NCBI GenBank assembly: GCA_965243135.1
Contig: OZ251539.1
Span: 3,744,001-3,808,000, forward strand
Origin: Alphaproteobacteria bacterium
GTDB lineage: Bacteria; Pseudomonadota; Alphaproteobacteria; MPNO01; UBA830
Direction of reading: 5' to 3'
Length of the DNA: 64,000 bases
Made by a program: the position numbers and the translations under genes. Numbering within the stretch: the first letter of the stretch is position 1; each line of letters starts with the position of its first letter. Below are positions 37,462-63,331 of the stretch, piece after piece. The notes under the pieces are model-generated. The model had not been told where the DNA came from. It saw nothing but the letters and a program-made list of their open reading frames with translations, and ran no database searches.

Positions 37462-37848
37462 ATGACAGACGCAGCAATGCCCAGCCCGGACGGCATGCTC
37501 AACGCTTACAGGAAGGTAATCCCCTTCGCGCAGGCCTATCGCGAGGACGCGGAGTTCCGCTCCCGGGTGGACGAGGATCCGAAATCCGTCATGGCCGAGC
37601 ATCACTTCGAGGTGCCGCCCGGCGTGGAAGTGCGCATCATGGAAGACACGGACGACACTTTCCACCTGGTCCTGCCGCCCGACCCGAACGTCGTCCTGTC
37701 CGACGAAGCGCTCGGCATGGTCGCCGGCGGCAAGTCGGCGAGCACGATCGGAAGCGCCGGCTCCGCCAGTACGGTCAGCACCGTATGCACCACCGCGAGC
37801 TGCGCGGCAAGCGCCGGCTCCCTGGGATCCGCGGGCACCGCGGGATAA
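37462..37848 (+). CDS. NHLP-leader RiPP precursor P1
   Basis: Leader FRSRVDEDP..FHLVLPPDPN..LSDEALGMVAGG; 38-aa core KSASTIGSAGSASTVSTVCTTASCAASAGSLGSAGTAG. Confidence 0.9.
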   Translation: MTDAAMPSPDGMLNAYRKVIPFAQAYREDAEFRSRVDEDPKSVMAEHHFEVPPGVEVRIMEDTDDTFHLVLPPDPNVVLSDEALGMVAGGKSASTIGSAGSASTVSTVCTTASCAASAGSLGSAGTAG

Positions 37849-37910
37849 GCCGGGAGCCCCGGCGGCCGACCGCTCGACTCGTTGTCCACAATCAAGAGGA
37901 GGATCATACC

Positions 37911-38306
37911 GTGGAATATACCGACATGACGCCCGAGGCAGTGCGGATGTACCAATCCAACTTCGCCTCGTTCAGATCGTTGTCCGATCGCTACTGGGAG
38001 GACGAGACCCTGCGCGGGCGGATCGACGCCGGGGACGTGGGAGACTTGCTCCCCGACCTCGGGATCGAGGTCTCTTCCGGCACCGACGTCCGAATCGTGG
38101 CCGACAGCGCCGACACGCGCTACATCGTCCTGCCGCCCGACCCGAATGTCCCCCTGTCGGACGAGACGCTCGGCATGGTCGCCGGCGGCGGCAAGACCGG
38201 CAGCACCGCCGGGACGGTCGGGTCGGCGAGCACCATGGCTTGCTCGTCCGTGCCGTCTTCGGCCAGTTCCGCCGGCACGGCGGGCTCGGTCGGCACCGCT
38301 GGCTGA
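37911..38306 (+). CDS. NHLP-leader RiPP precursor P2
   Basis: GTG start after GAGGAGG; LPPDPN..LSDETLGMVAGG; 38-aa core GKTGSTAGTVGSASTMACSSVPSSASSAGTAGSVGTAG. Confidence 0.9.
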   Translation: MEYTDMTPEAVRMYQSNFASFRSLSDRYWEDETLRGRIDAGDVGDLLPDLGIEVSSGTDVRIVADSADTRYIVLPPDPNVPLSDETLGMVAGGGKTGSTAGTVGSASTMACSSVPSSASSAGTAGSVGTAG

Positions 38307-38324
38307 CCAAGGAGGAACTTGATC

Positions 38325-38684
38325 ATGGAAATTCATGCGAGCGACTACTTGACGAAAGGAACCTACCTGAAGGACGTTCTCGATCCGGAATTTCGAGAGC
38401 GGATGCAGGCGGCTCCAGACGCGGCCTTGACGTCATGGGGCATAGATCTCCCCCCCGGCATCGATGTCAGCGTTCACGTGAACACGGACGACACTTTCCA
38501 CCTGGTCCTGCCGCCCGACCCGAACATCCCCCTGTCGGACGAGACGCTCGGCATGGTCGCCGGCGGCAAGACGGCGAGCACGATCGGAAGCGGCGGCTCC
38601 GCCAGTACGGCGGCAAGCATACCCAGCACCGCCAGCACCGCGTCAAGCGCGTCGACGGCGGCATCCATCGCCTGCGCGAGTTAG
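38325..38684 (+). CDS. NHLP-leader RiPP precursor P3
   Basis: RBS GGAGG; DPEFRERM..FHLVLPPDPN..MVAGG; 38-aa core KTASTIGSGGSASTAASIPSTASTASSASTAASIACAS. Confidence 0.9.
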   Translation: MEIHASDYLTKGTYLKDVLDPEFRERMQAAPDAALTSWGIDLPPGIDVSVHVNTDDTFHLVLPPDPNIPLSDETLGMVAGGKTASTIGSGGSASTAASIPSTASTASSASTAASIACAS

Positions 38685-38792
38685 GCGCAGAACCTGCCTC
38701 CTCCTTCTTTCTCCAGGCGCCGCTCCGCGGGCGGCGCGGCGCCTGGGCGCTCGGGCGTCGGGAAAAGAGCGCGGCGGTTTGACAGAGGCCGA

Positions 38793-38821
38793 TTGACAAT
38801 CGCAGCCGACCCGATTATGGG
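38793..38821 (+). promoter_or_regulatory. Sigma70-type promoter for the YcaO operon
   Basis: TTGACA-17 bp-TATGGG; a second TTGACA at 38779. Confidence 0.45.
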
Positions 38822-38855
38822 TTGATTCCGTCCGCCGCATCGGGGAGTTTTTGTG

Positions 38856-41189
38856 ATGGAGAGCGCCAAGCCGTCCGGCGCGCCGGGCCTGTTCGACCGG
38901 CCCGCGGGCGAGGCCCGGGCCCTGTTCCGGGTCACGGAGGCGGATCGCGGCACGGTGGAGCGGCCGCTGTTGTCGCCGCATCTGGAGGTTCGCCCGCTCG
39001 GCGGCGAGGCGGCGCTGCTGGTTTCGGAGACCTTCAACGCGGCGCTCTACGGGCGGCGCTACGTCGATCTTCTGCCGCTGCTCGACGGGACGCGCACGCG
39101 CCGCGAGATCGCGGCGGCGCTGTCGGGGACGTACGGTCCGCTGGAGATCCAGACGGCGCTGGTGTCGCTGGCGTCGAAGGGCTACGCGGTTTCGGGCGAA
39201 TTCGGGCTGGACCGGGACGCGGCGGCGTTCTGGTGTTCGGTGGGCGTGTCGCCGCGGTGGGCGGAGGAGCGGCTGGGTTCGGCGCGGGTGTCGGTTTCGG
39301 GGGACGAGGGCGGTCGCCTGGGGTCGGCGCTGGCGGCGATGGGGCTGGCGGTCGTCGCGGACGGCGCGACGTTGAACGTGGTCCGGGCGTCCGACTACCT
39401 GGAGCACGAGGAGACCAACCGGCGTCATCTGGCGTCGGGGGTGCCGTGGGTTCTGGTGAAGGCCGACGGGTCGTGGCCGCTGTTCGGTCCGGTGTTCCGC
39501 CCCGGCGAGGGGGGGGCGTGCTGGGCGTGCCTGGCGCACCGGATGCGGGGCAACAACGAGGTCGAGAACTATCTGCGCAACGCGGGGGGCGCGGGCGTGG
39601 TGCCGCAGGTGACGGTTCCGCCGTTCGCGGACGCGGTGCTCGGCCTGGCGGCGACGGAGATCGCGAGATGGGTGGTTCTGGGGGATGCGGCGGCGCTGCA
39701 CGAGCATGCGCTGTCGCTGTCGCTGTACGATCTCGCCGGGGAGCGGCATCCGGTCATGCGGCGTCCGCAGTGCGCGGCGTGCGGCGAGGAGGCGCTGCGG
39801 CGCGCCGACCGCGCGCCGTCGCCGGTGGCGTTGGGTTCGAGTCCGAAGCCGGTCCGGAACAGCGGCGGCCTGCGTTCGGTTCCGCCGGGGGAGACGGTGC
39901 GCAGGTACCGCCACCTGGTGAGTCCGGTCAGCGGCGTGGTGACGCAGTTGATGCGCACCACGGACCCGGGGGATTCTTGGCTGCACGTGTACTGGGCGGG
40001 GAGCAATCTGGCGCTCAAGGCGGACAGCCTGCGCCTGCTGCGCAACAGCCTGCGGACCAAGAGTTCGGGCAAGGGCAGCACGCCGGAGCAGGCGGAGGCG
40101 AGCGCGCTGTGCGAGGCGGTGGAGCGCTACTCGGGCGTGTATCACGGGGACGAGATCCGGCGCCGGGCGCGGTTCGACGACTTCGCGGAGGGGGAGGCGA
40201 TCCACCCCAACGACGTGATGCTTTACAGCGACCGGCAGTACGAGCGCGCGGAGGAGATCAACGCCTTCGGGTCCCGGTTCAACTACGTCACGACGCGCTT
40301 CGACCCGTCCGTCGAGATGGACTGGACGCCGGCGTGGTCGCTGACGGCGGGGCGCCACCGCTGGCTGCCGACGGCTATGCTCTACTTTTCGACGCCGACC
40401 GAGGGGGGCGTCGTCTACTGCGGTCCGGACTCGAACGGCTGCGCGGCGGGGAACACCCTGGAGGAGGCGATCCTTCAGGGCTTCTACGAACTGGCGGAGC
40501 GGGACGCGTTCGCGTGCTGGTGGTACAACCGGCTGTCCATGCCGGAGGTGGACATCGACAGCTTCGGCGACGATTATCTGTCGCGGACGCGGGAGTACTA
40601 CGCCTCCTTCCGCCGCGACGTGTGGCTTCTGGACGTGACCAACGATCTCGGGGTGCCGGTGTTCGTGGCCGTCTCGCGGCGCGTCGACAAGGAGGCCGAG
40701 GACATCCTCTTCGCGCCTGGCGCGCATGCCGACCCGCATATCGCGGCGCTGCGGGCGGTGTGCGAGTTGAACCAGTACCTGAGCGCGGTGCGGGACGTGG
40801 GCATCGACGGGGGGAACTATCTCCACGACGATCCGGAGACCCTGTGGTGGTGGAAGAACGCGAAATTGGCGGAGCATCCGTATCTGGCGCCGGCGGCGGG
40901 CGCGGCGAAGCGCGGGGCGTCGGATTACCCGGTTCCGGAGACGACGGATCTGCGGGAGGACGTGGAGCGTTGCCGGGCGCTGGTGGAAGGCATGGGCCTG
41001 GAGTTCCTGGTTCTGGACCAGACGCGGCCGGACATCGGGATGCCGGTGGCGAAGACGATCGTGCCGGGTCTGCGGCATTTCTGGACGCGCTTCGGACCGG
41101 GCAGGTTGTACGACGTGCCGGTGAAGATGGGGTGGCTGAAGACGCCCACGCCCGAGGCCGACCTCAATCCCGTCGCGGTGTTCATCTGA
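38856..41189 (+). CDS. Fused leader-binding/E1-like + YcaO cyclodehydratase
   Basis: GPVF..CWACL, RRPQCAACG, SGKG..EAVERYSG, SNGCAAG..EEAILQGFYELAERD, PGLRHFW, C-terminal NPVAVFI. Confidence 0.93.
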   Translation: MESAKPSGAPGLFDRPAGEARALFRVTEADRGTVERPLLSPHLEVRPLGGEAALLVSETFNAALYGRRYVDLLPLLDGTRTRREIAAALSGTYGPLEIQTALVSLASKGYAVSGEFGLDRDAAAFWCSVGVSPRWAEERLGSARVSVSGDEGGRLGSALAAMGLAVVADGATLNVVRASDYLEHEETNRRHLASGVPWVLVKADGSWPLFGPVFRPGEGGACWACLAHRMRGNNEVENYLRNAGGAGVVPQVTVPPFADAVLGLAATEIARWVVLGDAAALHEHALSLSLYDLAGERHPVMRRPQCAACGEEALRRADRAPSPVALGSSPKPVRNSGGLRSVPPGETVRRYRHLVSPVSGVVTQLMRTTDPGDSWLHVYWAGSNLALKADSLRLLRNSLRTKSSGKGSTPEQAEASALCEAVERYSGVYHGDEIRRRARFDDFAEGEAIHPNDVMLYSDRQYERAEEINAFGSRFNYVTTRFDPSVEMDWTPAWSLTAGRHRWLPTAMLYFSTPTEGGVVYCGPDSNGCAAGNTLEEAILQGFYELAERDAFACWWYNRLSMPEVDIDSFGDDYLSRTREYYASFRRDVWLLDVTNDLGVPVFVAVSRRVDKEAEDILFAPGAHADPHIAALRAVCELNQYLSAVRDVGIDGGNYLHDDPETLWWWKNAKLAEHPYLAPAAGAAKRGASDYPVPETTDLREDVERCRALVEGMGLEFLVLDQTRPDIGMPVAKTIVPGLRHFWTRFGPGRLYDVPVKMGWLKTPTPEADLNPVAVFI

Positions 41190-41226
41190 GCGGCCTGGCC
41201 GTTCGCTTCGCCGCCGGGACCGCGCC

Positions 41227-42597
41227 ATGACCTTCGTCGATCTCACCCGGAATACCGCAATCCATGTCCGTACCCGATGGAAGATCGGAACGTCCGAAGA
41301 CGGCGCGTCGTTCGCCATCGAGGGCATGGACGGCGGCGTGCTGCCCATCGGTCCCCACGCGCCGGAGTTCGAGTCCGCCAACGCGCGGCTTGCGGTTGGC
41401 GCGCCGCTCGGCAGTCTCCGCGACACGGTGATGGCGGCGGCGGGCGCGAACCGCGCCGCCGTCTATATCCTCTGGCTGCAACGTCTGTGCGCTTGGGGAA
41501 TCATCGAGTTTCCCCTGATGGACGACGCGGGCGAGCGCGCGGTGATTCTGCCGCAGTGGACGTCGTATACGCCCGCCTTGTCCCCGGAGGAGCCGGCGGC
41601 GGAAGCGGAGATCCACCGTTTCGCCTGTTTGCGGCGCGACGGCGGCGCCTGGCTTCTGGAATCGCCCTTGGCAGGCGCGCGTTTGCGCCTCGACGATCTC
41701 GCGGCGCTCGACGCGCCGGTTGTGCGCCGCGCGCTCGACGCGGCGGGATTCCTGGACACGGCGCCGTGGAACGAACAGCGTCGCACATCGCTCGCGCAGT
41801 GGGAGTTCCACGACCTCCTGCTGCATGCGCATCACCGCGGCGGCTGGCACCGAGATCCCATCGGCGCCATGTTCCCGTTCATCGGCGAGATCGACCCGCC
41901 GCCGGCAATCCGCCCGCCCTGGCCCGGCGAGCGCATATCCCTCGCCCGCGCTCCGAACGATACCGGACAAGAATCCTTTGCCTCGGTTCTGGAACGGCGC
42001 CGCTCGGAACGCTTCTACGACGAGAGCCGCCCCATCTCGCTGCGCGATCTTGGGGCGCTGCTCGACCGCGCGGCGCGGGTCCGATCCTTCGAAAACGTTC
42101 AGGTCGGCAATTTCATGGGCCGAACCAGCCCCTTCGAAATAACGCGGCGCCCCTATCCGAACGGCGGCGCGAGCTACGAACTGGAAATCTATCCGATCGT
42201 GGACCGTTGCGACGGCCTGGAGCCGGGCTTTTATCACTACGATCCGGCCGAGCACGAACTGGCGCGAATCTCCGGCCGCACCCCCGAGATCGAGCGCTAT
42301 GTCGCGGACGCGAAAACGTCCACCGCTGCCCTGGCGGATCCGCAGGTCGTACTCGCCATCGCGGCCCGCTTCGACCGGGTGATGTGGAAATACAAAGCTA
42401 TTTCCTATGGCGTCATCCTGCGAAACGCTGGCGCACTCTATCAGACGCTGTATCTGGCGGCGACGGAACTCGGTCTCTCGCCGTGCGGCATCGGGGGCGC
42501 CGATTCCGCATTGTTCGCCCGCATGACGGGGCTCGATCCGGTGGTGGAGGGCACGGTCGGCGATTTCATCCTCGGCGGCCCTCCCCGGCTCTCTTGA
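41227..42597 (+). CDS. SagB/McbC-type azoline dehydrogenase
   Basis: WEFHDLL, ERRRSER, RPYPNGGASYELEIY, GFYHYDP, MWKY, YQTLYLAAT.LGL. Confidence 0.92.
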   Translation: MTFVDLTRNTAIHVRTRWKIGTSEDGASFAIEGMDGGVLPIGPHAPEFESANARLAVGAPLGSLRDTVMAAAGANRAAVYILWLQRLCAWGIIEFPLMDDAGERAVILPQWTSYTPALSPEEPAAEAEIHRFACLRRDGGAWLLESPLAGARLRLDDLAALDAPVVRRALDAAGFLDTAPWNEQRRTSLAQWEFHDLLLHAHHRGGWHRDPIGAMFPFIGEIDPPPAIRPPWPGERISLARAPNDTGQESFASVLERRRSERFYDESRPISLRDLGALLDRAARVRSFENVQVGNFMGRTSPFEITRRPYPNGGASYELEIYPIVDRCDGLEPGFYHYDPAEHELARISGRTPEIERYVADAKTSTAALADPQVVLAIAARFDRVMWKYKAISYGVILRNAGALYQTLYLAATELGLSPCGIGGADSALFARMTGLDPVVEGTVGDFILGGPPRLS

Positions 42598-45143
42598 ACC
42601 TCGACGCGATCATCGCCCGCGCTGCCCCGCCCCCGGAGCGAGTCGACGCGGGCGCGTTCGAGCCGGTCGAGACTGACGCGGGGTCTCTGGCGCTGCGGCG
42701 AAAGCGGCTCGCGGAAGCCTTCGGGTCGCAGGAGGAGATGGAGACCCACGCCGAGGCCCTTGGACTGAGCCTGGAATCGTGGCTCGACCGCCTGCGCGAC
42801 GTGCGCCTCGCGGGCCCGGACCCCGACTGGGCGCACGCGTTCCGGGCCATGTTCGAGAGTCTCTCGGACGGACCGCGCCCTTTCGCCGGGTTCCGCCGCT
42901 GGATCGAGGGCGAGGCGAAAGCGCGGTGGCCGACGGAACTGCCGCGCGCGCCGGACGCGTTGGAGGGGCCGCTCGACTATCTTGCAGGCGTGCTCGGCAG
43001 CGCGCTCGAGGCGACGTACCGGATCGAGCGCACGCTGAATTCCCAGCCGACCTGGGCGACGCGCTTCCGGCGAAGCCCCGCCCTCGCCTACGCGCTCGGC
43101 CGGGCCACGGCGGACTGGCTCGCCGACCTCGTCCGGATCGTCGAGCGGGCCGCGGCGGACAGGCCGCTTCTCTCTCGCGTCTTCTTCGGCGGCGAGGACC
43201 CCGGAACGTTGGTTCGAATCGAGCCGGGGCTCGGCGACCCCCATGCCGGCGGACGCTCGGTGGCGATTCTGCGTTTCGAACGCGGCGGCGTGGTGTACAA
43301 ACCGAAGGATCTGCGGGTTGCCGCCGCCGTCGGCGAAATCGCGGGCCGGCTGGACGGCGCCGCGCTCGCCGCGCCGGCCGTGCTGACGCGCGGTAGCTAT
43401 GCATGGGAACAGGTTTACGAGACCCATCCCATCGCCGGCCGGGAAGAGGCCGACGCCTTCTTCCGCGCGCTCGGCGGCTGGCTCGCGCTTCTGCAGGCCC
43501 TGAACGGCAACGACTTCTGGTTCGACAACCTGATCGCCGACGGCGCGACGCCGCGCTTCATCGACTTCGAGACCGCGGTGCAGCCTCCGACGAACTGGTC
43601 GGAAGGAAAGTATCGGATGGGCGAGAAAGCGACGGCGCTCGTCGGAACCCTTCCCGTCGGCGCCGGCATTTTGCCGCTGCCGATACCGATCCGCGACGGC
43701 GAGGATCCGACCGACATCGGCTGCCTGTCCCGGCCCGGCGAGCATCGAACGCCGTTGCGGAACATCGACGGCGGCGGATTGATCGCTTGGCAGGAAAATC
43801 GTTTCGCGCCGCGCTACGAAGACGGTACCCCGGCAGACGTTGCGGATCACTTCGACGCCTTCGAGGACGGCTACCTCCAGGCCGCCCGCGCCCTCGCAGC
43901 CTCGACGGCGCGGGAACGCATGATCGAGACGCTGCAGCGGTTCGCCGACGCTCCAATCCGGATCATTCGTATCGACACCTGGACATGTTACCGGATAGTT
44001 CGCCAGTCGCTGTTGCCCAGCCATCTTTCCGACGGCGCTTGGCGCGAGATCGCGCTTCACGCCGCGTTGCCTCGCCAGCGCGACACGGTGGGCGAACTTC
44101 GCGAGGCCGCGGTGCGCGACCTCCGCCGGCTTGACGTGCCCCTGTTTCAGACCCGTCTCGACTCGCGGGATCTCCTCGGGGTCGAAGGCGAGCGCTTGCC
44201 GAACTTCTTCGGACAGGACGCGCTTTCGGGAACCGACGAGCGTCTACGAACTCTCGCCGGGGTCGCGGAAGACGACCGGCGCGCTGCGCTGCGCTCGGGT
44301 TTCAGCTTGCGGGCCGGCAACCCGCCGCGACGCTCGTCGACGACGGAACGGATGTCCGCGGCCCGCGCGGACGACATGCTGGCCTGGGCCGACGAGATCG
44401 CCTCCGGAGTCGCGCGACGAGCGGTGCGCGACGAGCGGTGCGGACCGACCTGGATCGGCCCGCACCACGATGTCTTCACCGGCCAGCGCATCCTGAGCCG
44501 ACTCGGCTTCGACGTCCTCTCGGGCCGGGCCGGCTTGGCGAAAGCGCTCTTGGATCTGGCCCGCGGACTGGACCGGCCCGATCTCGCCGCCCTTGCCCGC
44601 GAGGCCCTCGCCAGCGCGGCGCAGGATTTCGTCGATCACATCGATGCGCTTCAGCGATTCGGGGCCGGCTACGCGGTCGGCGCCGGGGGGCTCGTCGCGA
44701 TTCTGGCGCGCGAACGGGAATTGCGCCCGCTCGCGACCGGGGTCTGGCAGGCCGCGGCGGCGCGCGAAATCTGGATGCAGTCGGGAAGCGATTTCGTTTC
44801 CGGCCTCGCGGGTTGGCGCGAGGCTGCCTCGGCGCTCGGGGAAACGGCGCCTTCGCGGCACGGGCCGGGACGGCCCTACGCGCCCTCCGCCTTGGCGCGC
44901 CTGGCAGTTTGGCTGGACCCGGAGAACGCCGCGCCGCTTTGTCCCGACCGCCGCGCGGCGGCGGGCTTGCGCCGGGACTTCGAGCGTCACGGAAGCTGGT
45001 TCCCCGCCCGGTGGCTGGACGACCGGCACAATCTCTCCGGCATCGACGGCCTCCCGGCGTTGGCGGTGCGTTTCCTGCGCCTCGCGCATGGCGAGGCAGG
45101 TCCGGAAGGAGAGGAACTTCCGGCGGACGGGCGACGGAAATGA
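42594..45143 (+). CDS. LanM-like dehydratase (DUF4135) with shortened, degenerate LanC-like domain
   Basis: GDPHAGG, VYKPKD, NDFWFDNLIA, IDFET, RIIRIDT, LDVPLF; C-terminal G-x-A-G repeats but no WCHG/CHG; TTG start overlaps SagB stop. Confidence 0.85.
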   Translation: MNLDAIIARAAPPPERVDAGAFEPVETDAGSLALRRKRLAEAFGSQEEMETHAEALGLSLESWLDRLRDVRLAGPDPDWAHAFRAMFESLSDGPRPFAGFRRWIEGEAKARWPTELPRAPDALEGPLDYLAGVLGSALEATYRIERTLNSQPTWATRFRRSPALAYALGRATADWLADLVRIVERAAADRPLLSRVFFGGEDPGTLVRIEPGLGDPHAGGRSVAILRFERGGVVYKPKDLRVAAAVGEIAGRLDGAALAAPAVLTRGSYAWEQVYETHPIAGREEADAFFRALGGWLALLQALNGNDFWFDNLIADGATPRFIDFETAVQPPTNWSEGKYRMGEKATALVGTLPVGAGILPLPIPIRDGEDPTDIGCLSRPGEHRTPLRNIDGGGLIAWQENRFAPRYEDGTPADVADHFDAFEDGYLQAARALAASTARERMIETLQRFADAPIRIIRIDTWTCYRIVRQSLLPSHLSDGAWREIALHAALPRQRDTVGELREAAVRDLRRLDVPLFQTRLDSRDLLGVEGERLPNFFGQDALSGTDERLRTLAGVAEDDRRAALRSGFSLRAGNPPRRSSTTERMSAARADDMLAWADEIASGVARRAVRDERCGPTWIGPHHDVFTGQRILSRLGFDVLSGRAGLAKALLDLARGLDRPDLAALAREALASAAQDFVDHIDALQRFGAGYAVGAGGLVAILARERELRPLATGVWQAAAAREIWMQSGSDFVSGLAGWREAASALGETAPSRHGPGRPYAPSALARLAVWLDPENAAPLCPDRRAAAGLRRDFERHGSWFPARWLDDRHNLSGIDGLPALAVRFLRLAHGEAGPEGEELPADGRRK

Positions 45144-47658: not shown

Positions 47659-47688
47659 GGCCGCCGCCTTCGCGCCGGAAACGGCGTC

Positions 47689-48069: not shown

Positions 48070-48150
48070 GATCGTCTCCTATGCGTGATTCGAGTGGATG
48101 CTCCATCCCGAGGTTCGAGATGCCGAAACTCATCCCCGAATTTTCGGGAT

Positions 48151-48960: not shown

Positions 48961-48970
48961 AGGCGTACGT

Positions 48971-53963: not shown

Positions 53964-53967
53964 AGCG

Positions 53968-56904
53968 ATGACCGACAACAACGTCGTAGCCGAACGCATC
54001 AATGGCGTATCCTTCAGGGCCGGAGCGAACCAGCCCTTTCTCATGGACGATCCCGCCCGCGCTTTCTGGGTCGAGGACGGACATCTGGACATCTTCGCGA
54101 TCAAGCTCCTCAGCAACGAGGTCGCTACCCGTACGCCCTTCGTCACCCGCGTGCCCGCCGGAAGCATGTGCTTCGGCGCCCAGCGTCTGGCGGGCCGCGG
54201 GGGATCGGAGGGTCTGTTCGCCTTCCTCGCCGTGCCTTCCATCGACGCTGTCATCACCGTGGGCGAACGCGCCCGCGTCGCCTCGAAGGAAAATTTCGAC
54301 CTCGACGCGGTGATCTGGATCGACGAGTGGGTCGCCCGGCTCTCCGAGTTCCCGGTCCGAGGCGGAAGCCCGCCGCCGCGCAACGCGGCGCTGCTCGATG
54401 CCGACCCGAACGTGCCGTATCCCGCGGGCACCGCCGTAAGCGCGCATCACTCGGACATCGTCTGGGTTTCCGCCAACCGGCCGATCAGCTTCATCGGGGA
54501 CGGCGATCTGACCATCGGCGACGGCAGCCAGCTCGTGCCGCTGTCCGAGCGGACCTGGTTCGAGCTGGACGGCGACACCGAAGTCACGGCGCTTCAAACT
54601 CCGGCCGTCGTCATCGCGGAGCGGCTTTGGCCGTCCCTGGATCGTTTCAGCGCCCTTATCCTCGAATATGCGGCCATCGCCGAACGACGGAAGATCGATA
54701 CCTACAGCGACTATTATCAAACCCTGCTGCGGTCTCGCGAGACGACCACGACGAAGATGTTCGGGACCCTCGGCCAGGTTCTGGGCGTAGCGCAGGACCA
54801 GGAACAAAAGATCGCCGCCTCGTCCGGCGAGACTCCGCTGCGAACGGCGGTAAGCATCGTCGCCGAAGCCGCCGGGGTCACGCTCGAAATCGCGCGCAAC
54901 GTGAAGGAACCCGCCGATCCGGAGGAGGCAGTGGAAACGCTGGTTCGTCCGTCCGGCATCCGCTCGCGGAGAATCACGCTCACCGCCGACTGGTGGCGGC
55001 GGGACGGGCCTTCCTTGGTCGCGCTCGCAGGCGAGGAAAAACGGCCGATCGCTCTGCTTTCGGACGGGCGCGGCTCCTATCGCGCGGTCGATCCGACCGC
55101 CGGCAAGAGCTTCCCCGTTAGCGAAAAGGATGCCGCCGCGATCGGGCGTCACGGCGTGATGCTCTATTCGCCGCTTCCGCTGGATATCAAGGACGGGCTG
55201 TCGGCGCTGCGCGCTAGCTTGCGCGGGCGCTCGAGGGATCTCGGCGTCCTGATAACCATGGCCGTTCTCGGCGCTCTGGTCGCCTTGCTTACCCCTGTGG
55301 CGACCGGCGAGCTTCTCGCGGAGGTCGTCCCGCGCGTGGATACCTCGATGTGGATCGCCTATCTCGTCGCGTTGGTGTTCGCCGCTTTCGGCACCGCGAT
55401 GTTCGACGTGGTGCGCGCCCTTGCGTTGTTGCGAATCGAGGGCCGAATCGACGAGCGGCTCCAGGCGGCCGTGTGGATTCGCCTGCTCTCGCTGCCGGCG
55501 CCTTTCTTCCGCAGATTCACCGCCGGCGACCTGGCCGACCGGGCGAACGGCATAACCATGATCCGGCAGATGCTGACCGGCGCGACCGCGACCGCGGTGA
55601 TCGGCGGCGTGTTCTCCGTCTTCAGCTTCGCTTTGCTGTTCTACTACAGCTGGGAGCTCGCGCTGAGCGCGGCCGCCTTGCTGCTCGTTCTCATCGCCGC
55701 CACCTGGATATTCGCGCGCGGCGCAATGAAGCACCACCGCGCGGCGTTCACCGCCCAAGGATTGATCGACGGCTTCGTTTTCCAGTTGATCACCGGACTC
55801 TCCAAGCTGCGGATGGCGAACGCCGAAGCCGACGCGCTCGTGCATTGGGCGGAGCGCTACGCCGTCCAGAAACGCCGGACGCTTTCGGCGCGCCGCTGGG
55901 CCGCGGCCCAGTTTACCTTCAACAGCATGTTTACGCCGCTCGCCTCGCTCACCCTTTTCGCCCTCATCTGGTACATGCTTATCGAGGGCGGACAACAAGC
56001 CAGTTTCGGCCTCGCGGACTTCCTGTCCTTCAACGCCGCCTTCGGGCAGTTCGCCGCTTCGATGGTCGGGCTGACCGCCGCATGGACGACCGTGATATCG
56101 ACCATCCCGCTCTTCGAGCGCGTCCAGCCGATCCTCGAAGAACGGCCCGAGATAGCCGTGGGAGGCGCCGACCCGGGCGATCTAACCGGCGAAATCGAAT
56201 TTTCGAACGTGTGCTTCCGCTATCTTCCATCGGTTCCGAACGCGGTCGACGGAGTGTCCTTTCAGATCCGACCGGGCGATTTCGTGGCCTTCGTCGGTCC
56301 GTCCGGTTCGGGAAAGTCGACGATCTATCGGCTGCTGCTCGGCTTCGAGGTCCCGGATTCAGGCGCGATCTTCCTCGACGGCAATGACCTGTCGAGCCTC
56401 GACATGGCGGCGATCCGCTCCCGCATGGGCGTGGTCTTGCAAAACAGCCAGCTTTCCGCCGACAGCATTCTGAAAAACATCACCTGCGGCGCGCCGATGA
56501 CCATGGACGAAGCTTGGGAGGCCGCCCGGGCGGTCGGTCTCGCAGAGGACATCGAGGCGATGCCGATGGGGATGCACACGGTGCTGCCCGAGGGAGGGGG
56601 GGGGTTGTCCGGCGGGCAGAAGCAGCGGCTGCTGATCGCCCGCGCCATGGCCCGGAAACCGCGCATCATGCTGTTCGACGAGGCTACCAGCGCCCTCGAC
56701 AACCGCACCCAGGCGATCGTCCAGGCATCGCTGAAGCAGCTCAGCATCACCCGCGTGGTGATCGCCCACCGCCTCTCCACGGTGCAGGACGCCGACCAGA
56801 TCTTCGTCCTGGAGGCGGGTCGAATCGTCGAGTCCGGACGCTACGACGATCTCATGGAACAAGACGGCGTCTTCACCTCTCTGGCGCGGCGGCAGGTCGT
56901 CTGA
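53968..56904 (+). CDS. NHLP export ABC transporter permease/ATPase (peptidase-inactive partner)
   Basis: Long N-terminal domain, WWRRDGP, GPSGSGKST, LSGGQKQR, FDEATSALD. Confidence 0.92.
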   Translation: MTDNNVVAERINGVSFRAGANQPFLMDDPARAFWVEDGHLDIFAIKLLSNEVATRTPFVTRVPAGSMCFGAQRLAGRGGSEGLFAFLAVPSIDAVITVGERARVASKENFDLDAVIWIDEWVARLSEFPVRGGSPPPRNAALLDADPNVPYPAGTAVSAHHSDIVWVSANRPISFIGDGDLTIGDGSQLVPLSERTWFELDGDTEVTALQTPAVVIAERLWPSLDRFSALILEYAAIAERRKIDTYSDYYQTLLRSRETTTTKMFGTLGQVLGVAQDQEQKIAASSGETPLRTAVSIVAEAAGVTLEIARNVKEPADPEEAVETLVRPSGIRSRRITLTADWWRRDGPSLVALAGEEKRPIALLSDGRGSYRAVDPTAGKSFPVSEKDAAAIGRHGVMLYSPLPLDIKDGLSALRASLRGRSRDLGVLITMAVLGALVALLTPVATGELLAEVVPRVDTSMWIAYLVALVFAAFGTAMFDVVRALALLRIEGRIDERLQAAVWIRLLSLPAPFFRRFTAGDLADRANGITMIRQMLTGATATAVIGGVFSVFSFALLFYYSWELALSAAALLLVLIAATWIFARGAMKHHRAAFTAQGLIDGFVFQLITGLSKLRMANAEADALVHWAERYAVQKRRTLSARRWAAAQFTFNSMFTPLASLTLFALIWYMLIEGGQQASFGLADFLSFNAAFGQFAASMVGLTAAWTTVISTIPLFERVQPILEERPEIAVGGADPGDLTGEIEFSNVCFRYLPSVPNAVDGVSFQIRPGDFVAFVGPSGSGKSTIYRLLLGFEVPDSGAIFLDGNDLSSLDMAAIRSRMGVVLQNSQLSADSILKNITCGAPMTMDEAWEAARAVGLAEDIEAMPMGMHTVLPEGGGGLSGGQKQRLLIARAMARKPRIMLFDEATSALDNRTQAIVQASLKQLSITRVVIAHRLSTVQDADQIFVLEAGRIVESGRYDDLMEQDGVFTSLARRQVV

Positions 56905-56910
56905 TCCGCG

Positions 56911-57708: not shown

Positions 57709-57713
57709 AGGGT

Positions 57714-59189
57714 TCAGTCGAGGAACATGAGGCCGGGTTTGAGGTTCCAGCGCGTTCGCTGCGCCTCGCGCTCGAGATCCGGCAGATCCCGGATTCCGAG
57801 CTCGCGCGGCGTCAGCGCCCCGATCGCGTCCAGAAGCGAATACGCCTGCACGAGGGCGTCGCGCTCGGCCGTCAGCGCCCTGACCTGGTAAAGCACGAGA
57901 CTTCGTTCGGCGTCGAGCACTTCTCGCGTCGAGCGCTCGCCGATAGCCGTCTCTCTGCGAATGCCGGCGAGCGCGACCCGCGCCGCCTCCACCGCAGTCG
58001 CCAATGCCGCCCGGCGCTGCCGGGCCGCGAGCATGCCGTGCCAAGCGCTCGCAGCCCGCTGCGCCGCATCGCGCTGCGCGGCGGCGCGTTGGTCGCGGCG
58101 CTGCGCCAAGGCGTGTCCCGCCTGGCGGACCCGCGTCCCGACCGAGCCGGCCTGGTAGAGCGGGATTCTCAGCTGGACGCCCAAGCTCTGGTCGGTGCTG
58201 TTGAGAAAGCCGTCGGTGCCGTGTCCTATGGTTCTTGCGACGGTGGCCCTCAGATCGACGCTAGGTCCTATGTCGCCCTTGGCGGCGCGCACTGCATGGG
58301 CGGCGGCCCGTTCCGCGTAAACGGCGGCGCGCACCGAGGGGTGCCGGTTCCGGGCAGCGTCCAGCGCCGCGTCCAGCGTCTCGGGCAGGCCGGCCGGCTC
58401 GTTCGCAGGTTCCAACCCGACCGCCGGCAGTCCCACCAGCGTTTCGAACAACGCCTGCTGCACTTCGAGACTGGCCTTGGCCGAGGCCATGTCGGCGGCG
58501 GCGATCTCCCGCTCCGCATCGGCCTGGGCGACGTCGGCCCGGGTGCGATCGCCGACCCGGAACTGGGCCCTGGTCTCGCGGGCCTGACGTTGAAAGGAAG
58601 AGAGCGCAGCCTCGCGCAACCTGACGGTGCGCTCGGCGCGAAGCACGTCGAGATAGGCCGTGGCCGCGCGCAGCAGCACGGCCTGCTCGGTGTCTTCGAC
58701 GACGGCGTGGCTCTGCCGCACGCCCTCCTCCGCCTGGCGCAGCCCTGCCGTGTCCCGTCCGCTACGGAAGAGATTGTGGGTGTAGGCGAGCTCCAGCGAC
58801 TGCCGGTCGCTGCCGTCGCTGCCGGTCTCCAGGCCGGGCAGTGGAAACAGAGCGGCCCTATCGGGGATGAAGCGTTCCGTGGTGGTGTCGATCACCGGAA
58901 GGCGCCCAAAAGAAGTAGGAGCGCCCTGTCTGGCGGCGGTGCCGATCCGGGTTCCGCTCGCGCCCGCGGTGAGCTGAATCGTCGGAAACCATGCCGAGAG
59001 CGCGAGAGGGACGCTCTCGTGACGGGAACGAGCTGCGGCGCGGGCGGCCTGCACGTTCGGGTTGGATCGCGCCGCTTCGACCAGCGTTTCCTCGATGGTC
59101 AGCGCGCGAGCCGGAACGGCAGCCAAAACCGCCGCGAAAACCAGGAGCGCGCAACGCCGGGCCGTTTCAAGGCCGTTCTTGACCGGCAA
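57714..59189 (-). CDS. tolC: TolC-family outer-membrane efflux protein (start uncertain)
   Basis: Signal peptide ..AVPARA, SNP, ATAYLDVL, VGDRTRADVAQA, HPSV, IPLYQAG, GERSTREVLDAE. Confidence 0.88.
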   Translation of the reverse strand: MPVKNGLETARRCALLVFAAVLAAVPARALTIEETLVEAARSNPNVQAARAAARSRHESVPLALSAWFPTIQLTAGASGTRIGTAARQGAPTSFGRLPVIDTTTERFIPDRAALFPLPGLETGSDGSDRQSLELAYTHNLFRSGRDTAGLRQAEEGVRQSHAVVEDTEQAVLLRAATAYLDVLRAERTVRLREAALSSFQRQARETRAQFRVGDRTRADVAQADAEREIAAADMASAKASLEVQQALFETLVGLPAVGLEPANEPAGLPETLDAALDAARNRHPSVRAAVYAERAAAHAVRAAKGDIGPSVDLRATVARTIGHGTDGFLNSTDQSLGVQLRIPLYQAGSVGTRVRQAGHALAQRRDQRAAAQRDAAQRAASAWHGMLAARQRRAALATAVEAARVALAGIRRETAIGERSTREVLDAERSLVLYQVRALTAERDALVQAYSLLDAIGALTPRELGIRDLPDLEREAQRTRWNLKPGLMFLD

Positions 59190-59834: not shown

Positions 59835-60632
59835 TCAGCCAGCGTCGCCTTCGTGGCGCAGCCAATGGGTGGCGAAGCGCCTCCACCGCTCCAGCGGCTC
59901 GCAACGGCTTATCTGCAAGCTGTCGTAGGGTCGGAGAGCCCCCGGGTGGTGCACCATCCTCCCGTCGGCCTGCACCACGGCCGCGTGATTGGGCACCTTC
60001 GACCGCACACGGAACAAGACCACGTCCCCGATGCCGGAATCCGCCGCGTCGATGGCCCGGAACCCCGCCTTCTCAAACCCCGCCCGGTAGAGATCCAGAC
60101 CCTCCAACCACCAGTTCCAGTCGCGCGGAAAGTCGGGCAGCAGGACGTTGCGCTCCTGACGGTAGTAGTCGCGAATGAGCGAGTAGCAATCCGTCACCCC
60201 GTGCCGGAACGGCCGGTTCAGCAGCGGCAGCATGGGACACTGGTCCCCGAACCAGAAGCGATCGACGCACCGCGACCGGTCGGACACCACGACGCCGAAG
60301 GGCACCGCCAAGGCCGCCTGCGCGCGCATCTCCGCCGCGCTCGGAACGAACAGCGACAGGTCGAGGTCGTCGTTTCCGGCCGCGGTCGAGGAGCGCGTGT
60401 GCACCGCCGCCAACAAGGCGCCGTGAGTTTCCTCCATCCAGCGCAGCGCCACCTCCTCGACCCGGAAATTGGCGCGCGAGTTGTCCGCGACCTCGGCGAC
60501 GGAGCGATAGACGGGGTCGGCGCGGCTCCCGAACACGGCCCCCAGCGCCTCCCCGGGAAACGCCTCGAGCGCGTGGGCGTCCATGGCGTCCTGGAGACCC
60601 TCGAACAGCCGGGTCTGCGCTATCCAGCGCAT
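59835..60632 (-). CDS. JAB/Mov34 + NlpC/P60 protein (phage tail gpK-like), copy 1
   Basis: HA..FPGEA.G, VHTR..PSAAE, PLLNRPFRHGVTDCYSLIRDYY, PNHAAV, MVHH. Confidence 0.82.
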   Translation of the reverse strand: MRWIAQTRLFEGLQDAMDAHALEAFPGEALGAVFGSRADPVYRSVAEVADNSRANFRVEEVALRWMEETHGALLAAVHTRSSTAAGNDDLDLSLFVPSAAEMRAQAALAVPFGVVVSDRSRCVDRFWFGDQCPMLPLLNRPFRHGVTDCYSLIRDYYRQERNVLLPDFPRDWNWWLEGLDLYRAGFEKAGFRAIDAADSGIGDVVLFRVRSKVPNHAAVVQADGRMVHHPGALRPYDSLQISRCEPLERWRRFATHWLRHEGDAG

Positions 60633-60639
60633 TCGAATC

Positions 60640-61140
60640 CGCTCCGGGGTTCGCGCCTGCGCCGCGGACCGTTCCTCGTTAGGCGAACGGCGGCGAGGCG
60701 CGGTCCTGCCGACGGCGCGCTTGTCGCGTCCGCAGGGAGGAGCTGCAGGTTCTGGCGCCGCTTGCGGTGGCGCGCTGGCGCAAGGTTCTGAAATCCGGAG
60801 TCGACGCCCGCCGCGCCGCCGAACGGCTCGAACGCGCGGCCACCGTCAACGCCGCTTGGCGCTCGGCGACGCTGCTCGGTCGGGCAACGCCGCGACTTCC
60901 CGCCGAGGCGACGTTCTCCGATGTCGAGATCGGCGTTCTCCGCGACTTCGCCACGGACCTCCCCGAGCCTCTCGACCTGAACGCCGCGGTGCTGGCGATG
61001 ATCGGGGTCGCCGCGACGGACCGCCCGGCTACAAGGCGATCCGGCAAACTCGCGGCTCATGGCGCAGGCCTGCGGAACCGGGTGGCCGCCGACGAGCCGC
61101 GCCAGCAACTGCGTCCGCACAAAACTTGTGACTAGGGGAG
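60640..61140 (+). mobile_element. IS4 transposase C-terminal remnant
   Basis: KVLKSG, AERLERA, AWR..LLGRATPRLPAE..FSDVEI, PPGYK. Confidence 0.7.
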
Positions 61141-61234
61141 CGCCTGACCCTCGACGCGCCGGAAAAAGGCGAGCGGAGAAGGACGGAAGGGCGACGGTCG
61201 TCACGGCCGCCACCTTCGCGTTGGAAACGGCATC

Positions 61235-61570
61235 CTAAATTCTGTCCCTCGCGGTTGCGAAGCTGCTCATGCTTCCGGCCGAATTCACGCAGGAAAGAAT
61301 GCTCCCGACGGTTCTCCCCGAGCTCGCCGCGCCACTCGACTTGCCGTCGGCGCCTCGCCCTGGAGCGCCTGGTTCGGGTCGGGAGGCATGGCCAAGCGGA
61401 AGGCGTCGCGGGCGTTGAGGGCAACGTTCACGTCCGTCGATCCCGCGCTCTCGCGGAACGTCCCTCGGACGCTCCTCGACCTCGCGCGACCGATCTTGGC
61501 GGCAGGCGTCGGCGAGGCCCTAAAGGACGATGCCTTGCCGAACGCCGCAGATGTCTTCCGGATCGTCTCC
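61235..61570 (-). pseudogene. Decayed NHLP precursor P6, followed by the first codons of a rSAM-epimerase copy
   Basis: Homologous to P4/P5; ATG deleted, internal stop, 13-nt deletion removes the double Gly; core KSSGAASSGRTVGSILSCVNSAGSMSSFATARDRI. Confidence 0.8.
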
Positions 61571-61640
61571 CCTGCGCGGTTCGGGCGGATGCTCCACCGG
61601 CGCGTACTATATCGCCCCGCTTAATGTAACCTTGTTTGGA

Positions 61641-61741
61641 CTCCACCGCATTGCTGCTGGCGCAGCCCAAGGGACGCGAACGTCAATTTCGCCATCCCGG
61701 ATGCCTTGTGGTCTCCACCGCATTGCTGCTGGCGCAGCCCA
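61641..61741. repeat. 29-bp perfect direct repeat, 72-bp period
   Basis: CTCCACCGCATTGCTGCTGGCGCAGCCCA at 61641-69 and 61713-41. Confidence 0.9.
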
Positions 61742-62090
61742 GGGAGCTAACTGAACTCGCGGTGGAAGGAATGCTCCCGACGGTTCCCCCCGAGCTCGCC
61801 GTGCCGCTCGTCTTGCCGCCGGCGACCGCCGTCAGCGCCTCGTCCTGGAGCGCCTGGTTCGGATCGGGAGGCATGGCCAGGTGGAAGGTGTCGTGGGTGT
61901 TGAGGACGACGTTCACGTCCACGTCCATCGGCACGTCGATCCCGTGCTTCTGCAGAACGTCCTTCGGATGCTCCTCGACCTCGCGCAGCCGATTCTCGTC
62001 GGCGTGGCAGGCGTCGGCGAGGTCCTGAAGAATGATGCCCTGCTGGCGAACGTATTGGAAGATGCCTTCCTGGTGAATATTGTCGTGCAT
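61683..62090 (-). CDS. NHLP-leader RiPP precursor P5
   Basis: FHLAMPPDPNQALQDEALTAVAGG; core KTSGTASSGGTVGSIPSTASSVSSLGCASSNAVETTRHPGWRN. Confidence 0.88.
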   Translation of the reverse strand: MHDNIHQEGIFQYVRQQGIILQDLADACHADENRLREVEEHPKDVLQKHGIDVPMDVDVNVVLNTHDTFHLAMPPDPNQALQDEALTAVAGGKTSGTASSGGTVGSIPSTASSVSSLGCASSNAVETTRHPGWRN

Positions 62091-62169
62091 GGTCGTCTCC
62101 CCTGCGATGTCCAGACTTCAGACGGACGCTCACGGTCCAAGACGCGGAATTCGTCCGCGAATCTTTAAG

Positions 62170-62211
62170 ATCATGCACAGCGGGGGGGGGGGGGGGGTAA
62201 ACCCTAATTTC
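62170..62211 (-). promoter_or_regulatory. P5 promoter with C16 tract
   Basis: Minus strand GAAATTAGGG TTTA C16 (G16 at 62182-97) GCTGTGCATGAT. Confidence 0.65.
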
Positions 62212-62536
62212 ACGCAGGCGTGGCGCGACTCGGCGGCGGTCACCCTGTTCCGCAGCTCGTAGGCCTGCGCCTTCGGTCGCGAGTCGCCAGATCGCCTCGC
62301 AAAAGCCGGAGAAGAATGCAGCGCAGACCGCAACCGTGGCGTAGGATATCCCTGCTTCGGCAGCATATTAGGGTTGCGACCGTTTATTCTTGCTGCGAAA
62401 TTGCCGGTTCGGCGATTCTGCCGGGCCGGCGCGACCGGACTTCCAGGCCGTTTCGTCGGCGCCGGACAACGCCCGGTCCGTTCGTCCGACGGGGAAGCGA
62501 CCGCAGCGGTGGACCCAAACCTTGGAGCGGCATTGA

Positions 62537-63331
62537 ATGTTCGGAATAAAGCAGACCCGGCTGTTCGAAGGACTTCGCGGCGCCATGGAGACGCACGCGC
62601 TCCAAGCCTTTCCGGGAGAGGCGTTCGGCGCGGTGTTCGGGAACCCGGATCGTCCCGCCTACCATCCCGTCGATCAGGTCGCGGACAACTCGCGCTTGGG
62701 TTTCCGGGTCGACAGGGCCGCGCTGCGCCGGCTGGAGGAGACTCACGGCGCCTTGCTGGCGGCGGTGCACACGCGCTCCGCGACCGGGGACGGGGACGCC
62801 GATCGGCTGCTGTTCATCCCGAGCGACGCGGAAATGCGCGCGCAGGCGGCCCTCGCGGTGCCCTTCGGCGTGGTGGTCTGCGACCGGTCGCGCTGCATCG
62901 ATCGTTTCTGGTTCGGGGATCAATGCCCGCCGCTGCCTCTGCTGAACCGGCCGTTCCGGCACGGGGTGACGGATTGCTATTCGCTCATCCGCGACTATTA
63001 CCGGCAGGAGCGGAACGTTCTGCTGCCCGACTACCCGCGAGACTGGAACTGGTGGGTGGAAGGTCTCGATCTCTACCGGGCGGGCTTCGAAGAGGCCGGG
63101 TTCCGGACCATCGACCCGGCGGACGCCGACGACGCGGACGCGGTCATGTTCCAGATGCGGTCAGACGTGCCGAATCACGCGGCCGTGCTGCTGGACGACG
63201 GGTATATGTTGCACCACCCAGCGGCGCTGCGGCCTTACGACCCTCTCCGAATGAGCCATCGCGAGCCGCTGGAGCGATGGAAGCGCCATGTCACGCACTG
63301 GGTGCGCTACGAAGGCAGTCAGAACCTGTAG
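62537..63331 (+). CDS. JAB/Mov34 + NlpC/P60 protein (phage tail gpK-like), copy 2
   Basis: Close paralog of 59835..60632 with the same motifs (VHTR, PSDAE, TDCYSL, PNHAAV, LHH). Confidence 0.82.
   Translation: MFGIKQTRLFEGLRGAMETHALQAFPGEAFGAVFGNPDRPAYHPVDQVADNSRLGFRVDRAALRRLEETHGALLAAVHTRSATGDGDADRLLFIPSDAEMRAQAALAVPFGVVVCDRSRCIDRFWFGDQCPPLPLLNRPFRHGVTDCYSLIRDYYRQERNVLLPDYPRDWNWWVEGLDLYRAGFEEAGFRTIDPADADDADAVMFQMRSDVPNHAAVLLDDGYMLHHPAALRPYDPLRMSHREPLERWKRHVTHWVRYEGSQNL

Follow-up and report, generated by a model that had tools for sequence, protein, structure and literature searches.

A putative dehydrazole-type proteusin gene cluster with additional tailoring and export genes in an alphaproteobacterial genome

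The gene cluster described here lies in a 64,000-nucleotide stretch of DNA from an Alphaproteobacteria bacterium (contig OZ251539.1, positions 3,744,001 to 3,808,000 of the forward strand; hereafter the window), and its closest described relatives are the dehydrazole pathways. Dehydrazoles were defined by Pei, Zhu & Nair in 2023 by an NHLP precursor, the YcaO protein CcaB, the dehydrogenase CcaC, the PoyD-like radical SAM enzyme CcaD and the DUF4135 protein CcaM, termed LanMbC, in which a DUF4135 dehydratase is fused to a zinc-free cyclase-like domain (PMC10676384). Carnazolamide is described as containing eight azoles and eight dehydroalanines (Dha), each Dha being immediately N-terminal to an azole, together with one S-methyl-cysteine and one D-proline, D-Pro15 (PMC10676384). 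In the same account, CcaM does not need the leader but does need azoles, CcaD works as the last enzyme, once the azoles and Dha are in place, and more than 50 related dehydrazole clusters are counted (PMC10676384). Nostatin A, from the nst cluster of Nostoc sp. (2024), is reported to be made by the same set of four enzymes, NstD, NstE, NstF and NstG, acting on an NHLP precursor (PMC11583998). Its core sequence TTPSC becomes D-Pro-Dha-thiazole, with this Pro as the only D-residue described (PMC11583998), and the peptide is reported to be cytostatic at nanomolar concentration.

The cluster occupies 37.4-63.9 kb of the window and extends about 7 kb further beyond its end. With a probability of roughly 0.72, it is a dehydrazole-type cluster for proteusins, that is, for peptides that are made by the ribosome and modified after translation (RiPPs) with an NHLP leader, and its steps are assigned by homology to the carnazolamide pathway, which has been reconstituted. 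The window has a GC content of about 68%, and for this reason the raw lists of open reading frames (ORFs) are full of spurious frames. Genes were called from codon-position GC and then checked by family searches. From 37.4 kb onward, the precursors preA, preB and preC, a YcaO fusion, SagB, a LanM-like protein and an oxygenase of 233 amino acids follow one another on the plus strand. The radical SAM gene, preD and an AspH-type oxygenase come next on the minus strand, and then HlyD, a C39-ABC protein and a 978-amino-acid ABC protein on the plus strand. They are followed on the minus strand by a PhyH-type oxygenase, TolC, JAB/NlpC-P60 copy a, a degraded precursor and preE. The last part consists of JAB/NlpC-P60 copy b (plus strand) and an OmpA-like barrel (minus strand). 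All enzyme ORFs are intact and contain the catalytic motifs. An initial annotation made from the letters of the window had named five NHLP-leader precursors with double-Gly sites, a fused E1-YcaO, SagB, a LanM-like dehydratase, a PoyD/OspD-type radical SAM epimerase, three unrelated Fe/2OG-type oxygenases, and export by HlyD, C39-ABC, ABC and TolC proteins. Each of these items is present in the window. The annotation does not name the two JAB/NlpC-P60 genes, the degraded sixth precursor or the part of the cluster that lies beyond base 64000.

In the proposed pathway, the E1-like/YcaO fusion would bind the structured NHLP leader and cyclodehydrate Ser, Thr and Cys of the core, and SagB would turn the azolines into (methyl)oxazoles and thiazoles by oxidation. 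The zinc-free LanM-like enzyme would dehydrate Ser, and perhaps Thr, on the N-terminal side of an azole to Dha or dehydrobutyrine (Dhb). The PoyD-type radical SAM enzyme would act late, most likely on the single Pro of the Pro-Ser-(Ser/Thr/Cys) sequence in cores B-E. Up to four Fe(II)/2-oxoglutarate (Fe/2OG) oxygenases, two of the AspH type, one of the PhyH type and one WelO5-like with an HxD motif, would hydroxylate the peptides, and further steps may fall to an APH-family kinase and to a cysteine hydrolase of the JAB-like/NlpC-P60 type. The C39-ABC protein would cut after the double Gly and, together with the second ABC protein, HlyD and TolC, would export 36-43-mers. The initial annotation had predicted 36-43-mers that combine azoles, dehydro residues, D-residues and hydroxyl groups. 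This is reasonable and has a direct precedent in carnazolamide, but the precedent suggests one D-Pro and not many D-residues.

The four core enzymes are encoded as follows.
38853 to 41189, plus strand: winged helix-turn-helix, E1-like leader-binding and YcaO cyclodehydratase domains in one protein, 778 amino acids (PF02624, E 1e-98)
41227 to 42597, plus strand: SagB/ThcOx-type azoline dehydrogenase, 456 amino acids (TIGR03605, 155.4 bits, cut-off 78.4; PF00881, PF22767)
about 42600 to 45143, plus strand: LanM-like dehydratase, about 847 amino acids, start approximate (DUF4135, PF13575, E 2e-65)
46162 to 47658, minus strand: putative PoyD-type radical SAM epimerase, 498 amino acids (TIGR04517 rSAM_PoyD), with an NHLP-like N-terminus (NF038399)

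The YcaO fusion matches TIGR03604 with 276.9 bits (cut-off 219.25) and the leader-binding domain TIGR03882 with 136 bits, and is 42% identical to CcaB over 750 amino acids. SagB is 31% identical to CcaC. The radical SAM protein is 31% identical over 476 amino acids to CcaD, an enzyme linked to the formation of D-Pro, contains the cluster motif CxxxCxxC as CSLGCWFC, and matches TIGR04517 over model positions 1-445 of 446.

The LanM-like protein has no match to PF05147 (LanC) in the Pfam search, and its TIGR03897 match (255.7 bits, below the cut-off of 304) covers model positions 78-704 of 932 only. A canonical class II lanthipeptide synthetase with a zinc-ligand LanC domain is rejected on both results. 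In the C-domain, NLSGIDG aligns with LLSVIHG of CcaM, no Cys-His pair is present, and the last 248 amino acids contain two Cys. Judged by the presumed canonical LanC Cys/His zinc-ligand positions, the C-domain is zinc-free. The AlphaFold2 (AF2) model of the protein has a predicted local distance difference test (pLDDT) score of 86.2, and its Foldseek matches include LicM2 (E 2e-26) and CylM (E 1e-23) over 815-940 columns. By sequence, the protein appears to be of the LanMbC type, with DUF4135 followed by a shortened LanC-like C-domain that lacks zinc ligands.

The YcaO gene is also present as a second, inverted, gene-length copy 28 kb away. The two copies (38832-41193 and 66654-69015) have 97.9% nucleotide identity, and the DNA flanking them is not duplicated. 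The second copy lies at L058:4654-7015, where L058 denotes a 16-kb stretch beyond the window that is numbered from about window base 62000. Either gene conversion or very recent copying may lie behind this.

The window contains five intact precursor genes and one degraded copy.
37462 to 37848, plus strand: preA, 128 amino acids, with a 38-amino-acid core beginning KSASTIGS (TIGR03793, 56.5 bits, E 1.8e-15)
37926 to 38306, plus strand: preB, 126 amino acids, with a 38-amino-acid core containing SVPSS (TIGR03793, E 6.5e-8)
38319 to 38684, plus strand: preC, 121 amino acids, with a 38-amino-acid core containing SIPST (TIGR03793, E 1.5e-12)
47689 to 48069, minus strand: preD, 126 amino acids, with the leader sequence HLAMPPDPNQ and a 36-amino-acid core containing TLPSC (TIGR03793, E 4e-12)
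61683 to 62090, minus strand: preE, 135 amino acids, with a leader of the D/E type and a 43-amino-acid core containing SIPST (TIGR03793, 50.8 bits)
about 61185 to 61545, minus strand: a third D/E-type precursor copy, degraded, which takes in the stretch between preD and the radical SAM gene

All five intact precursors match the TIGR03793 leader_NHLP model and have a GG site. The leaders all end PPDPN...(A/V)AGG and form two types, HLVLPPDPN and HLAMPPDPNQ (the D/E type). Ser/Thr/Cys make up 42-50% of the cores, each core has 5-7 Ser/Thr-(Ser/Thr/Cys) pairs, and the motif xPS[STC] is present in cores B-E. Because each core contains only 1-2 Cys, oxazoles should dominate in the products. In the degraded copy (repeat families D4-D9), nucleotide identity to 47639-48031 is 80-88%, the frame is broken and one TAG lies within the match.

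A sixth intact precursor, preF, is found past the window end, and the 6.1-Mb genome contains at least 13 intact precursors, six of them in the extended locus. Seven of the intact precursors are located at sites remote from the cluster (L059-L063). These are a second preA'-B'-C' trio with 82-96% identity and four D/E-type orphans, two of which are identical. Five weaker NHLP-like matches occur elsewhere in the genome. The YcaO (two copies), LanM-like (one) and radical SAM (one) genes are found at this locus only, and a single enzyme set probably serves many precursors, most of which lie behind one promoter-like element.

A promoter-like element precedes three of the precursor genes.
37392 to 37406, plus strand: element GAAATTAGGGTTAAC upstream of preA, with a tract of 13 C behind it
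48172 to 48186, minus strand: element upstream of preD, with an interrupted C-tract
62197 to 62211, minus strand: element with a 14-C tract, upstream of preE

The consensus is the 15-nucleotide sequence GAAATTAGGGTTWAC followed by a C-tract. Three matches are present in the window, compared with 0.01 expected, and with their C-tracts they span 37392-37430, 48150-48186 (minus strand) and 62170-62211 (minus strand). At one mismatch or fewer, GAAATTAGGGTTWAC has nine matches in the genome and a control pattern has none. Eight of the nine are located just upstream of NHLP-type ORFs, which include A, D/E and F types. The element precedes NHLP-type ORFs of every type, which speaks for a single regulon. 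The C-tract is located at the position of a promoter spacer, so that slipped-strand phase variation is possible; homopolymer errors of long-read assembly are possible too.

The same core recurs in related genomes. Among the 120 clusters listed as containing a homologue of the LanM-like protein, 95 are at least 47% identical. For 52 related loci, taken from a genome scan with this protein, 19 window proteins were searched with tblastn within 10 kb on either side. YcaO is present in 48 of the loci, SagB in 47 and the radical SAM protein in 27. The accessory proteins are found in fewer loci (JAB/NlpC-P60 in eight, the WelO5-like and AspH-type oxygenases in seven each, and the PhyH-type oxygenase in two). 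The 25 closest loci (47-82% identity) are all from metagenome-assembled genomes (MAGs), the titles of which name Alphaproteobacteria, Gammaproteobacteria, Ca. Porisulfidus, Vicinamibacterales/Acidobacteriota, Ca. Binatia and Paracoccaceae. In the LanM-like tree (27 rows), the window sequence groups with three Alphaproteobacteria MAGs (100/100). Elsewhere in this tree the taxon labels are intermixed with full support, as in the groups of Gammaproteobacteria with Alphaproteobacteria (100/100) and of Binatia with Paracoccaceae (100/100). This intermixing fits horizontal spread, with the labels taken from MAG record titles only.

The stretch containing the precursors and YcaO is also represented in sequencing runs. 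Four runs from a single study labelled as a sponge metagenome contain 0.37-0.55 of the sampled words. The stretch occurs in three other studies as well, one of which is possibly the source. No RNA run is among the sequencing runs found to contain it.

The nearest relatives (L001, L002 and L016; about 80% identity) contain, in this order, preA, preB and preC, YcaO, SagB, the LanM-like and WelO5-like proteins, OmpA, JAB/NlpC-P60, AspH, HlyD and C39-ABC. No radical SAM gene is found by tblastn within 10 kb of the cluster in these three loci. The radical SAM query was run on five related genomes (G001-G005; G000 is the source genome). In G001 and G003, the radical SAM gene (83-84% identity) is megabases away from the YcaO cluster and lies among 3-4 D/E-type precursors and unrelated genes. 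G002, G004 and G005 have no match with the window query. D/E-type precursors with at least 60% identity to preD are present in G000, G001 and G003 and absent from G002 and G004, so that they occur only in the three of these five genomes that have the radical SAM gene.

These distributions in G001 to G004 weigh against a single dehydrazole pathway, as do several features of the locus itself. Only preA exceeds the curated TIGR03793 cut-off of 50.9 bits, and the other four precursors score 32-51 bits. preA does not contain any Pro. The radical SAM protein, at 315.7 bits, falls just below the TIGR04517 cut-off of 325. The LanM-like protein is 27% identical to CcaM and its helical C-domain is about 170 amino acids shorter, which makes azole-dependent dehydration in this locus an extrapolation. 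Gene content, families, catalytic motifs, homology to the Cca proteins and synteny in relatives are observed, and from them it is deduced which reactions occur, in what order and on which substrates. The degraded precursor and the several duplications show a locus in flux.

Since the radical SAM gene is far from the YcaO cluster in G001 and G003, the window may hold two modules and not one pathway. Under this alternative, which is unlikely, an azole/dehydro module (preA-C, preF, YcaO, SagB, the LanM-like protein and the oxygenases) would adjoin an epimerase-only module (the preD/E-type precursors and the radical SAM enzyme), and no single peptide would carry azoles plus D-residues. The distinct leader types, like the shared distribution of the D/E-type precursors and the radical SAM gene, favour this division. 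However, the remote radical SAM module comes with neither a protease nor an exporter, and the D/E cores are as rich in Ser/Thr as cores A-C and carry the Pro-Ser-azole-type motif. The same upstream element is present before both precursor types. In eight closer relatives the radical SAM gene is within the cluster, and in L007, L008, L018, L020 and L023 it is located between YcaO and SagB. CcaD, as described, needs azoles and Dha to be installed first (PMC10676384). From these sequence comparisons, an epimerase/D-type-precursor module appears to have been brought into the azole cluster in the window, which speaks in favour of the two-module alternative.

The signs of flux are also consistent with a decaying or silent mosaic that yields no mature product. 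Such a mosaic could account for the degraded precursor at about 61185-61545, the inverted duplications of the JAB/NlpC-P60 and YcaO genes, and a transposase-like ORF at 28567-30708. The intact enzyme ORFs with their catalytic motifs, the conserved upstream element, and the retention of close homologues in many genomes (the 95 of 120 listed clusters) make it highly improbable. The dehydrazole-type proteusin pathway is the reading followed below.

Four oxygenases are encoded in the extended locus.
45140 to 45841, plus strand: WelO5-fold Fe(II)/2OG oxygenase, 233 amino acids, with an HxD...H triad (AF2 and Foldseek)
48971 to about 49771, minus strand: Asp/Asn beta-hydroxylase-type (AspH) Fe/2OG oxygenase, start from codon-position GC (PF05118, E 2.4e-36)
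56911 to about 57714, minus strand: PhyH-type Fe/2OG oxygenase with HRD...H (PF05721, E 1.9e-6, 28.8 bits, cut-off 22)
past the window end, in L058: second AspH-type oxygenase (PF05118, E 6e-48)

The PhyH-type gene has a non-ATG start, approximately at the TolC stop. The ATG of the 233-amino-acid oxygenase overlaps the stop of the LanM-like gene. This protein has no family match in Pfam or NCBIfam searches, and sequence-only PDB searches return marginal matches; its assignment came from the fold. The AF2 model (pLDDT 85.9) is most similar to WelO5 Fe/2OG halogenases in the PDB (E 7e-10, TM-score 0.64-0.75). When the protein is aligned with seven homologues of related clusters, H117-F-D119 and H200 are invariant (8/8), and in the profile IHFD aligns with VHVD of the WelO5 G166D variant. 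The family has 1288 representatives at E 1e-3 or below. A WelO5-type halogenase, which has HxG, is ruled out by the invariant HxD. Because the Asp of the iron site is kept, the protein should be of the hydroxylase type. The three oxygenases of the window are assigned to PF05118, PF05721 and a WelO5-like fold, in agreement with their description as unrelated in the initial annotation.

The export proteins and the remaining genes in the window are as follows.
50153 to 51403, plus strand: NHLP-system HlyD-type adaptor (TIGR03794, 267.9 bits, cut-off 156.2)
51765 to 53963, plus strand: C39 peptidase-ABC exporter, a peptidase-containing ABC transporter (PCAT) (TIGR03796, 1020.7 bits, cut-off 853.3; PF03412, E 3e-36)
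53968 to 56904, plus strand: second NHLP-system ABC permease/ATPase, 978 amino acids (TIGR03797, 843.3 bits, cut-off 709.4)
57714 to 59183, start estimated, minus strand: TolC-family outer-membrane channel with a signal-peptide-like N-terminus (TIGR01844, 237.8 bits; PF02321)
59835 to 60632, minus strand: JAB-like plus NlpC/P60 protein, copy a (PF00877; phrog_30, E 3.7e-54)
62537 to 63331, plus strand: JAB-like plus NlpC/P60 protein, copy b (PF00877; phrog_30, E 1.5e-59)
63319 to 63960, minus strand: OmpA-like beta-barrel (PF13505, E 1.9e-15)

The NHLP-system trio all score above their curated cut-offs, and the catalytic Cys and His motifs are present in the C39-ABC protein. The OmpA-like protein has matches with 40-46% identity in L001, L002 and L016, where it also adjoins a JAB/NlpC-P60 gene.

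Copy b of the JAB/NlpC-P60 gene is an inverted repeat of copy a (I1, I2), with 82% nucleotide identity. Both proteins match the phrog_30 minor tail protein, and their Atlas matches are mostly viral clusters. The architecture is what we take to be that of phage lambda gpK. Among 10 aligned sequences, Cys149, His216 and His228 are invariant, and the Glu and HxH motifs of JAB are not kept. Sequence-only PDB searches give marginal matches. No further phage genes are found near the JAB/NlpC-P60 genes, and the protein is read as a component of the cluster with candidate roles as a peptide hydrolase, in trimming or in immunity.

In a distant, low-GC locus (L051:4887-7720), an uninterrupted row of AspH, JAB/NlpC-P60, WelO5-like and AspH genes adjoins the precursors. 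Their stops and starts abut or overlap, and translation appears to be coupled. This arrangement suggests that the four form one tailoring unit.

Within about 7 kb past the window end lie the second AspH-type oxygenase, an APH-family kinase, the second YcaO gene, a coreless NHLP-like protein of 85 amino acids and preF.
L058:3202-4236, plus strand: APH-family phosphotransferase (PF01636), kept in six related loci
L058:7902-8159, plus strand: coreless NHLP-leader-like protein, 85 amino acids, which ends ...HIVLPAPLK and has no GG site and no core

For the APH-family protein, candidate roles are phosphorylation of peptide Ser/Thr and self-protection. The coreless protein has 59-80% identity in 17 of the 52 related loci, across phyla, and is much more strongly conserved than the genuine precursors. 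Its length is 81-97 amino acids in 12 of 13 copies read, and the copy in L020 has 118 amino acids from the first ATG. When it is cofolded with the N-terminal 400 residues of YcaO, the score is 0.45, compared with 0.00 for the best control, and this lends weak support to an interaction. Contact agreement between runs is at least 96% and the partner pLDDT is at least 77. The calibration covers 80 solved complexes and 110 mismatched pairs, of which 58 and 2, respectively, attained the mark; at 0.60 or below, it was attained by only 7 of the 80 solved complexes and by both mismatches. Leader-YcaO complexes have already been solved, so that the pass could come from likeness alone.

Several other ORFs were rejected as cluster genes. 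Those at 60767-61135 (plus strand), 60620-61213 (minus strand), 48319-49017 (plus strand) and 48297-48827 (minus strand) are treated as non-coding, with homologues in none of the 52 related loci. The ORF at 35983-36768 (minus strand) has good codon bias, no family match and no homologue in the 52 loci, and is placed outside the cluster. Two long ORFs (36019-37848 and 44438-45841, both plus strand) are high-GC artefacts that are coding in their 3' parts only. A 51-nucleotide direct repeat with 80% identity occurs in apparently non-coding DNA at 48888-48938, close to the AspH gene, and at 60946-60996, close to JAB/NlpC-P60 copy a. The ORFs that overlie it are without homologues in the related loci. 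About 7 kb upstream of the cluster, an ORF of 713 amino acids (28567-30708, minus strand) contains DruA (Druantia), transposase DNA-binding and DDE domains. A HAMP/SpoIIE (PP2C) phosphatase is located at one flank (30819-32912, minus strand) and a STAS anti-sigma antagonist at the other (L058:10016-10354, minus strand). These two proteins look like parts of a partner-switching system.

A wider proposal is offered tentatively and is itself doubtful. The locus may represent a horizontally mobile, apparently sponge-symbiont-associated dehydrazole subfamily that works combinatorially, in which one locus serves at least 13 dispersed precursors of two leader classes, co-regulated by a promoter element with a slippage-prone poly-C tract. 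The coreless protein would be a trans-acting leader mimic that docks on the leader-binding domain of YcaO, and the gpK-like hydrolase a peptide-maturation enzyme coupled in an operon to the hydroxylases. If this is true, the coreless NHLP-like protein and the domesticated gpK-like hydrolase are components new to RiPP biology. Possible new tailoring enzymes also include the WelO5-like peptide hydroxylase, which has no Pfam family, alongside the gpK-like hydrolase and the coreless leader-like protein. Dehydrazoles were defined only in 2023, and this variant adds up to four oxygenases and a large, diverse precursor set. Because relatives are found in uncultured bacteria of several phyla and in sponge-metagenome runs, the cluster points to an unexplored, probably exchangeable family of hypermodified peptides.

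Of the known systems, the carnazolamide cluster cca of Chryseobacterium carnipullorum DSM 25581 (L036) has the same four-enzyme core, and the window proteins, aligned over their full length, are 42%, 31%, 31% and 27% identical to CcaB, CcaC, CcaD and CcaM, respectively. The cca cluster has only one precursor, and with it an S-methyltransferase and a leader peptidase of the S8 type, whereas the window contains several precursors and a PCAT. Oxygenases, JAB/NlpC-P60, a kinase and PCAT/TolC export are absent from cca and present in the extended window locus. TLPSC and SIPST of the window cores are similar to the TTPSC sequence of nostatin A, the motif xPS[STC] also resembles the D-Pro15 site of carnazolamide, and two Nostoc loci (L027 and L029) contain homologues of window proteins with 29-45% identity. 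Unlike the window, the nostatin A pathway is reported to include a B12-dependent radical SAM C-methyltransferase and a sactionine bond, and no Fe/2OG oxygenases are reported there.

Polytheonamide (poy) and landornamide (osp) share the NHLP leader with the window, and their PoyD/OspD-type epimerase has a putative counterpart there. Further parallels on the polytheonamide side are PoyF, a dehydratase like the N-terminal part of LanM, and PoyI, which is an Fe/2OG hydroxylase. To our knowledge, the poy and osp proteusins have no YcaO or azoles, and their epimerase acts early and makes many D-residues. The srp sponge proteusins resemble the window in their NHLP leader and YcaO and are spread over sponge-symbiont phyla, but are described with an LCCCW core and the flavin brominase SrpI (PMC10858898; bioRxiv preprint). 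Membership in the srp group is rejected, as none of six cores contains LCCCW and no halogenase is found among the ORFs scanned. Prochlorosins (ProcM) also combine one enzyme set with many dispersed precursors, large structured leaders and PCAT export. They differ in having lanthionines and Nif11 leaders and in the absence of YcaO and an epimerase.

The initial annotation did not recognise the combination of enzymes from any characterised pathway. For the four-enzyme core this does not hold, as it is that of carnazolamide and nostatin A. For the accessory set it does: the literature search found the set in no characterised pathway, and the predicted clusters in the supplement of Pei et al., which lay outside the reach of that search, may show oxygenases. 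Relative to the carnazolamide and nostatin pathways as published accounts describe them, the additional components are three oxygenases (four with the L058 copy), two gpK-like JAB/NlpC-P60 proteins, the APH-family kinase, the coreless NHLP-like protein and PCAT export, together with the many additional precursor genes, which make up an unusual set across the genome. Judged by its genes, the core of the locus would belong to the known dehydrazole/proteusin class and not to a new kind of system, and the cluster as a whole appears to be a richly decorated variant of that class.

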